From: a virus
Taxonomy: Duplodnaviria; Heunggongvirae; Uroviricota; Caudoviricetes
Reading direction: 5' to 3' (one strand)
Virus record (IMG/VR): IMGVR_UViG_2896595138_000011
Location: 1-14,542 of that record
DNA: 14,542 nucleotides
The position numbers and the translations under genes are program-made. Below are positions 13,441-14,542 of this stretch, piece after piece; the first letter of the stretch is position 1; each line of letters opens with the position of its first letter. The notes beneath the pieces are model-generated. The model saw only the letters and a program-made list of their open reading frames with translations. It searched no databases and was not told where the DNA came from.

Positions 13441-13523
13441 CGTAAGCGCCCCATCAGCGACGTCTTGTGAAAATTGTCCTGTCTGGCAACAATCGCGCCC
13501 ATCTATATTGATGGACACGAACG

Positions 13524-14198
13524 ATGAATTCCCAGACAACAAAAGATATTCCCTGCTTCCGTTCTTATTTGCCTGATGCCCTGCGTTTAAGATTTGAAGA
13601 TAAACTGACCATCCGGGCCATCGCTCAGCGTCTGGGTCTCAGTCATTCCACAATACATACGCTTTTTCAGCGATTTCTTGCATCCGGTATCGCATGGCCA
13701 TTGCCCGATTCAGTTTCATTCGCTCAACTTGACGCCATCCTTTATGCCAACAGAAAGAAGGAATTAACAGAGCCTCAAATCAGAGAAGGCTCATGGCGAA
13801 AAGAACGGCGAACCAGCTATAGCCGTGAATTTAAGGTCCGTCTGGCTAAGCAGGCGTTACAGCCTGGGGCTGTTGTTGCCCGGATCGCCAGAGAACACGA
13901 TATCAATGATAACCTGCTGTTTAAATGGAAAAGCCAGTACGAGGACGGCTTACTGAGCGATGATGACATACAGGAATGCATGCCTGTCCCGGTGGCACTG
14001 ACTGATACGCCGGAGCCGACCAGACCAGTTACAAATCCCTTCTGGCGTAACAAGCATGATGAGCGCCCTGAGGGGGCTCCCGGAAACGTCCCACGGTGCG
14101 AGCTGCATCTTAAATCAGGTGTGGTAAAACTGTTTGACCCTCTCACTCCGGAACTGTTACGGGCGCTAATCCGCGAAATGAAAGGGGGTATCCGATGA
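13524..14198 (+). CDS. IS66-family orfA (TnpA-like accessory protein, 224 aa)
   Basis: Region RRTSYSREFKVRLAKQALQPGAVVARIAREHDINDNLLFKWKSQY matches the IS66 orfA signature; carries an extra N-terminal HTH-like segment (LTIRAIAQRLGLSHSTIHTLFQRF). Confidence 0.75.
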   Translation: MNSQTTKDIPCFRSYLPDALRLRFEDKLTIRAIAQRLGLSHSTIHTLFQRFLASGIAWPLPDSVSFAQLDAILYANRKKELTEPQIREGSWRKERRTSYSREFKVRLAKQALQPGAVVARIAREHDINDNLLFKWKSQYEDGLLSDDDIQECMPVPVALTDTPEPTRPVTNPFWRNKHDERPEGAPGNVPRCELHLKSGVVKLFDPLTPELLRALIREMKGGIR

Positions 14199-14542
14199 TA
14201 ACGCTGCCGACCGGTACCAAAATCTGGATCATCGCTGGCATCACAGATATGCGTTGTGGCTTCAATGGCCTGGCTTCGAAGGTGCAGAACACGCTGAAAG
14301 ATGACCCGTTCTCCGGGCATATCTTCGTCTTCCGGGGCCGCAGTGGCAAAATGGTGAAAATACTGTGGGCCGATCGTGACGGGTTATGCCTGTTCGCCAA
14401 ACGCCTGGAACGGGGCCGCTTCGTCTGGCCGGTGACCCGGGAAGGGAAAGTGCACCTGACGCCAGCTCAGTTATCCATGCTACTGGAGGGGATCGCGTGG
14501 CAACATCCCAAACGGACAGAACGGCCTGGCATCCGGATATAA
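14195..14542 (+). CDS. IS66-family orfB (TnpB, 115 aa)
   Basis: MITLPTGTKIWIIAGITDMRCGFNGLASKVQ...HIFVFRGRSGKMVKILWADRDGLCLFAKRLERGRFVWP matches the conserved IS66 TnpB; start overlaps the orfA stop (ATGA). Confidence 0.85.
   Translation: MITLPTGTKIWIIAGITDMRCGFNGLASKVQNTLKDDPFSGHIFVFRGRSGKMVKILWADRDGLCLFAKRLERGRFVWPVTREGKVHLTPAQLSMLLEGIAWQHPKRTERPGIRI

Follow-up and report, generated by a model that had tools for sequence, protein, structure and literature searches.

Positions 13442-14542 of the window (the whole 14,542-nucleotide stretch of DNA analysed here) are very probably the left part of an ordinary ISSfl3-type insertion sequence (IS), a hybrid and decayed copy that sits at an old rearrangement breakpoint beside an ipaH prophage remnant. 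The element itself is a catalogued, common Shigella/E. coli IS, already known and ordinary; the breakpoint and its immediate surroundings comprise the following features.

Positions 13442..14542, + strand: left part (1,101 bp) of an ISSfl3-type IS66-family IS, 99.9-100% identical with IS copies for whose transposase PGAP gives the name 'IS66-like element ISSfl3 family'.

Positions 13442..13468, + strand: left terminal inverted repeat, GTAAGCGCCCC..., whose 11 terminal bases all match the right end (18/27 over the first 27).

Positions 12937..13441, - strand: 3' remnant of the lambdoid minor tail gene L, codons ~66-232 and the stop, ~167 C-terminal residues (Pfam Phage_tail_L 8.3e-75, profile 37-206 of 206).

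Positions 13434..13441, no strand: the 8 bp left of the IS, GTTCAAAC, of which there is no repeat at the right end of the element in chromosome CP026845.1.

Positions 12937..13518, - strand: chimeric ORF (193 aa in public gene calls) that starts within the IS left end, on the strand opposite to tnpA, and runs over the joint into what is left of L.

When the window is aligned with an intact L (EIEC strain FDAARGOS_944, L002 16549..17247, 232 aa) and with an independent IS copy from plasmid pCFSAN029787_01, the change from L to IS falls exactly between 13441 and 13442: the window follows L up to ...GTTCAAAC (13441) and follows the IS from GTAAGCGCCCCATCAGCG (13442) on. The preliminary description of this DNA, made from the letters alone, had ended L homology and begun an IS66-family left end at this point, and its coordinates prove exact. 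What is left of L amounts to 505 nt (12937-13441, minus strand), the 5' 194 nt (~65 codons) being gone. The chimeric ORF that spans the joint is probably meaningless as a gene; its exact 193-aa product, read from a GTG start at 13518, is recorded for three chromosomes only (CP026845.1, CP026846.1 and CP026877.1, hereafter the junction genomes). In look-ups against the public collection, versions of this ORF with TTG starts at 13542 and 13539 gave no match, and the version starting from ATG-13377 (146 aa) matched only other genomes, in which L is frameshifted and the IS is absent. Among the complete E. coli genomes of the collection the L/IS junction is missing, the top coverage of window positions 13300-14542 being 89%. 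The left-flank octamers are similar at three insertion sites of the IS (GTTCAAAC, window 13434-13441; ATTCAAAT, L013 9911-9918; GAACAAAT, L004 20086-20093); other IS copies have unrelated AT-rich flanks, and these sites are too few for claiming a target preference.

The IS segment (13442-14542) shares 99.9-100% identity with copies on plasmids and chromosomes of EIEC and Shigella and ~97% identity with copies on EHEC and EPEC plasmids, and it is matched in 4,278 of 5,426 complete E. coli genomes; at 99.9-100% identity to so many E. coli/Shigella IS copies, chance is not at issue. Its terminus, GTAAGCGCCCCATCA, abuts unrelated DNA in seven independent IS copies, and the right repeat in CP026845.1 (...CGGGGCGCTTAC), which recurs as the right end of the reference copy, mirrors the left end. 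Imperfect terminal inverted repeats of the GTAAGCG type (roughly 20-30 bp) thus bracket tnpA (HTH_Tnp_1), a translationally coupled tnpB (PF05717) and, downstream and outside the window, a tnpC with DDE_Tnp_IS66 that in CP026845.1 is a pseudogene. Together, tnpA/tnpB, tnpC and both inverted repeats support the assignment of this DNA to the IS66 family, with a left end at the truncation of L, that had been proposed at the outset. Ends of the GTAAGCG type and the TnpA/TnpB/DDE layout are known in other IS66 members, Pseudomonas elements included (PMC12888890). An 8-bp target-site duplication is lacking at the window copy and is found at other copies of the same IS, which carry 8-bp direct repeats (ATTCAAAT in L013; GAACAAAT in L004, L007, L008, L010 and L011); its absence here reflects a later rearrangement of the window copy and is no argument against IS66 membership.

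For an ISSfl3 isoform we set the threshold at 95% nucleotide identity or more (98% or more for protein) with the ISfinder reference, for which a PGAP-labelled copy stood in here. The complete reference copy (L003 3512..6265, 2,754 bp) comprises tnpA, tnpB and a 533-aa tnpC that PGAP names 'ISSfl3 family', and the element in CP026845.1 aligns with it over its full length at 99.3% identity. ISSfl3 would be the fitting name for the element, resting on the PGAP label of these near-identical copies.

The continuation of the element can be followed in CP026845.1 (GCA_002950375.1), which equals the window at 100% identity over 11,606 bp. This chromosome is probably from Shigella; CP026844.1, the accession beside it, and CP026876.1 are Shigella boydii plasmids. 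There the element is whole, with a length of 2,746 bp, both inverted repeats and tnpC, and it would end at window-equivalent 16187; the third gene (orfC) and the right inverted repeat, which were to be sought beyond the window edge and whose absence was to count against the IS66 reading, are both present. Past the right end the DNA (GTACATGCTGTACTGACGG...) belongs to the distant chromosomal gene yecE, of which it is the 3' part; yecN, cmoA, cmoB, torZ, torY, cutC and yecM follow. The preliminary description had also asked whether the missing 5' part of L lies on the far side and whether an 8-bp target duplication is to be found: the far side is yecE, and in all three junction genomes the flanking 8 bp are GTTCAAAC on the left and GTACATGC on the right, with no duplication. 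To the left of the window CP026845.1 carries yehQ-yehR-yehS-btsR-btsS. On the K-12 map the two flanks lie at about 2.2148 Mb and about 1.952 Mb, both ascending, an arrangement that corresponds to no simple deletion and to no single inversion. Because the junction recurs in three independent complete assemblies that differ in their secondary lesions, it is no misassembly and is ancestral to the lineage.

The surroundings of the element are a decayed, ipaH-carrying lambdoid prophage remnant by btsS, in which intact and broken genes lie side by side.

Positions 1203-1871, beside ipaH: class I SAM-dependent methyltransferase, intact.

Positions 2154-3797, + strand: ipaH, an intact 547-aa IpaH-type T3SS effector E3 ligase (LRR_TTSS + NEL; 'ipaHe' in EIEC annotation).

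Positions ~6726-8068, + strand: IS4 transposase between lom and the J 3' end, broken into four or more reading frames (pieces of 47, 74, 299 and 65 aa).

Positions 8117-12933, - strand: tail genes J, I and K, all fragmented here and intact or nearly so in EIEC.

Of the tail genes, J is left as two pieces (725/728 and 295 aa) and I likewise as two (140 and 54 aa); of K there is a 156-aa fragment and, in a different frame, an N-terminal piece. The three related assemblies do not share all of these frameshifts, so a few may be errors of assembly. The IS4 transposase had been described as broken, a description that the split confirms, and it is degenerate in the two related genomes too. Just left of window position 1, btsS (L025 15727-17411) is read as two ORFs of 104 and 457 aa, against a 561-aa gene in K-12; this may be another pseudogene or an assembly indel.

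We then considered the coding state of the copy. In the IS66 family TnpC is the catalytic transposase, TnpA and TnpB being accessory proteins; the window ends at the stop codon of the second gene.

Positions 14195..14542, + strand: tnpB, IS66 accessory protein, 115 aa (Pfam PF05717, TnpB_IS66, 5.4e-39, 132.6 bits, profile 2-100 of 101; NCBIfam NF033819 125.6 bits).

The start of tnpB overlaps the stop of tnpA in ATGA (14195-14198), and both reading frames (13524-14198 and 14195-14542) are intact, as had been stated before. A second ISSfl3 variant exists in which a 20-bp deletion in tnpB yields a 116-aa TnpB with an altered C-terminus overlapping tnpC (L013 10672-11022; also L005, L007, L009, L010 and L012); the window copy has the undeleted 115-aa form.

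The damage lies in tnpC. In the other ISSfl3 copies fetched, the motif AATGAAC stands twice at the tnpC start (IS positions 1119-1126, window-equivalent ~14560; L022 about 8950-8960), which puts the canonical ATG in frame; in the junction copy it stands once in all three genomes, and this 7-bp loss puts the canonical ATG out of frame, leaving as the only start a GTG 4 nt past the tnpB stop. This deletion is robust, being present in three assemblies, and the repeat unit was lost in the common ancestor of the three strains. As an observation in its own right, the AATGAAC tandem repeat could be a slippage-prone site.

In CP026845.1 tnpC is damaged further, by the nonsense change TTG>TAG (IS position 1160) and by a deletion of 1 bp (near position 1943), although the single-base lesions of this assembly, these two and the J/I/K frameshifts, could partly be assembly errors. 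The gene is accordingly called there as two fragments, of 297 aa (public gene calls; 300 aa by ORF scan) and 187 aa, which carry zf-IS66, DDE_Tnp_IS66 and DDE_Tnp_IS66_C. At L023 tnpC is interrupted by an IS3-family element, and at L024 it forms a 536-aa ORF with a GTG start (463.8 bits against NF033517), from which, to judge by the reading frame, a transposase may still be made.

The ends, tnpA and tnpB are intact and tnpC is damaged, so that the copy lacks the complete set expected of an autonomous element; with these tnpC lesions it is decaying and unable to move alone. The suggestion of a more recent or still active insertion, drawn from the intact first two genes, is contradicted by the tnpC damage in all three junction genomes: intact tnpA and tnpB at a window edge are no evidence of an active element. 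Given its intact ends, tnpA and tnpB, the copy might nonetheless be mobilised by intact copies elsewhere.

How, then, did a single IS come to join L to yecE? Flanks of different origin without a target duplication identify the site as a hybrid rearrangement junction. In the most likely history, the IS would first have inserted into L (in which case GTTCAAAC would be one copy of the original target duplication), and the L 5' part, together with the remainder of the prophage, would afterwards have been deleted or moved elsewhere, either through homologous recombination with a further ISSfl3 copy or through an intramolecular event mediated by the IS. The ancestral arrangement (L 3' part, IS, L 5' part) was seen in no genome, and a search for the reciprocal junction protein (L 5' part running into the right inverted repeat, 76 aa) did not find it, the matches being ordinary L fragments only, all of which lack the ...ERKRPEKYVA tail and come from outside the three junction chromosomes; with the reciprocal product not found, recombination between two copies is a step that we infer. 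The preliminary description had implied something simpler, the recent insertion of an active IS66-family element into L, with an 8-bp duplication and the 5' part of L lying beyond it. The exact abutment of the left end on L and the intact left repeat, tnpA and tnpB are what such an event would leave, but yecE lies directly past the right end, the element is flanked by GTTCAAAC and GTACATGC in all three genomes and tnpC is damaged in each of them; barring one misassembly common to three assemblies this scenario is already refuted, and we regard it as scarcely credible.

A less direct course would have the first insertion in yecE, followed by a single intramolecular transposition (adjacent deletion, inversion or translocation) that joined the left end to L with neither a second copy nor homologous recombination. 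The missing target duplication agrees equally well with this and with recombination between two copies, and the failure to find the reciprocal junction suits it; against it, the joint on the K-12 map (~2.2148 to ~1.952 Mb, both ascending) needs more than one step in any case, and the chemistry of IS66 transposition is too little known for predicting its products. We consider a start in yecE unlikely, while granting it an appreciable minority chance. Since both flanks ascend and the K-12 map jumps backward by ~263 kb, the junction also looks like the new joint that unequal crossing-over between an IS in L and an IS in yecE would create in forming a large tandem duplication, and the three chromosomes are fairly large (4.86-5.13 Mb). 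However, CP026845.1 has only a single site each for the 154-aa product of window 5262-5726 and for the 193-aa chimeric ORF, showing that the prophage remnant is not duplicated, and no joint of the L 5' part with the right repeat was found. The duplication model was rejected on the single-copy state of the remnant, and we hold it to be very improbable. Insertion into L with subsequent rearrangement is the history that we prefer.

The other feature singled out in the preliminary description was the length of the first gene, in which an extra helix-turn-helix (HTH) precedes the conserved core.

Positions 13524..14198, + strand: tnpA, encoding the 224-aa long-form IS66 accessory protein (an N-terminal HTH joined by a linker to the HTH_Tnp_1 core, then a C-terminal hairpin and helix).

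Positions 13524..13808, + strand: residues 1-95 of TnpA, its N-terminal extension (with HTH_23 matched at nt 13590-13691).

The 224-aa protein is the native, standard long form of the ISSfl3 subgroup. Pfam recognises HTH_23 at residues 23-56 (38.6 bits, cutoff 24.6) and HTH_Tnp_1 (PF01527) at residues 94-170 (83.9 bits), and the motif RKERRTSYSREFK lies at residues 92-104; HTH_23 falls within the extra N-terminal HTH-like segment. The protein belongs to NCBIfam NF038385, the curated equivalog for long-form TnpA, scoring 285.3 bits (cutoff 150) with residues 12-205 aligned to profile positions 1-189 of 190 and the N-terminal HTH spanned. The extension by itself (95-aa fragment, residues 12-95) matches profile positions 1-85 (110.8 bits, E = 5.8e-32). 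The exact 224-aa sequence is found in 1,798 blocks of the public collection, where a look-up returned at least ten other insertion sites, none of them at L; at 99% identity it falls in a cluster of 471 members named 'IS66-like element accessory protein TnpA [Shigella flexneri]'. Klebsiella, Citrobacter, Salmonella, Buttiauxella and Pantoea have full-length homologues (207-227 aa), at identities down to 38-41%, and among these homologues the N-terminal ~90 residues are kept, with the pattern LRLRF..L..R.IA..L..S.ST.H..F.RF...GI.WPLP. The gene had been taken for unusually long; family model, cross-genus conservation and the 1,798 blocks make its length normal for the subgroup.

In an AlphaFold model of TnpA, made from 13 sequences and with a mean pLDDT of 66, residues 9-77 and 101-140 are confidently predicted as helical domains, with pLDDT 78-88 at residues 11-70; a disordered basic linker is predicted between the two domains and, after them, a disordered stretch and then a C-terminal hairpin and helix (192-221). 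A Foldseek search of this model against the PDB returned nothing below E = 0.02, the hits being generic bipartite HTH proteins only. In NCBIfam, residues 20-109 (window 13581-13850) weakly match, below threshold and with E = 4e-4 in each case, the N-terminal parts of transposases from the IS21 and IS630 families, a likeness which hints at a shared type of transposase DNA-binding module.

Conserved, included in a curated model and predicted to fold, the extension is an ancestral folded DNA-binding domain and not a fusion with unrelated sequence, the circumstance under which the preliminary description would have been withdrawn; its retention in the 207-227-aa homologues shows that no such fusion has occurred. 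The related idea that the extension is a local artefact, a fusion or an over-extended start, and that the real TnpA is a compact protein of ~130-140 aa, draws on the many IS66-family TnpAs of ~139 aa that align only to residues ~95-224, but it has to contend with conservation of the extension across five genera at identities down to 40%, with its place as positions 1-85 of NF038385, its HTH_23 score over the Pfam threshold and its confidently predicted fold, and with a tnpA that offers no internal ATG ahead of residue 153. The conservation data already refute it, and we see next to no prospect of its being correct. Two HTH domains on a disordered basic linker would permit bipartite DNA binding, presumably at the IS ends; to our knowledge, there is no biochemical study of the two-HTH architecture of long-form TnpA. 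It is conceivable, albeit improbable, that the extra HTH alters end recognition or target choice in this IS66 subgroup relative to compact-TnpA elements and, separately, that the AATGAAC repeat switches transposase translation on and off by slippage.

Biologically, the junction is one more IS-mediated breakpoint, by which a prophage remnant with ipaH has become fixed in a Shigella-type chromosome. The finding has little import beyond annotation and is of interest to specialists in IS66 transposition only.

Among known systems, the setting recalls IS-mediated rearrangement and prophage decay in Shigella and deletions flanked by IS66 elements, of which the Agrobacterium pAt plasmid provides an example (PMC6778807). 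The likeness lies in an IS with unmatched flanks at a breakpoint and in pseudogenised prophage genes; the difference is that neither the partner copy nor the reciprocal product of the window junction was found. The closest counterpart is ISSfl3 of Shigella flexneri (the ISfinder name used by PGAP), to which the element shows 99.3-99.9% identity, with the same inverted repeats, a tnpA of 224 aa and a tnpB of 115 aa. Relative to the ISSfl3 reference copy the window copy is 2,746 rather than 2,754 bp long, has one AATGAAC unit fewer, carries the tnpC nonsense codon and 1-bp deletion in CP026845.1 and has unmatched flanks; the tnpC product of reference copies is 533 aa, against the 536-aa ORF at L024.

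IS679 of the EPEC plasmid pB171, the relative that has been studied by experiment, is an E. coli element within the IS66 family, with tnpA, tnpB, tnpC, GTAAGCG-type ends and 8-bp duplications; all three of its genes were reportedly found to be needed for transposition (Han et al. 2001, J Bacteriol 183:4296). The ~97%-identical copies on EHEC/EPEC plasmids may correspond to IS679.

The IS66 elements of E. coli and Shigella with compact TnpAs (139 aa, NF047595 type, for which NCBIfam keeps that separate model) make a further comparison. Their TnpAs share the HTH_Tnp_1 core and C-terminal segment, with 38-42% identity over window residues ~95-224; the extension is missing from these 139-aa proteins, which lack the ~90-residue N-terminal HTH, reach 92 bits against the NF038385 cutoff of 150 and match positions 84-188 only. 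The TnpB and TnpC of these elements belong to the same families as those of the window element.
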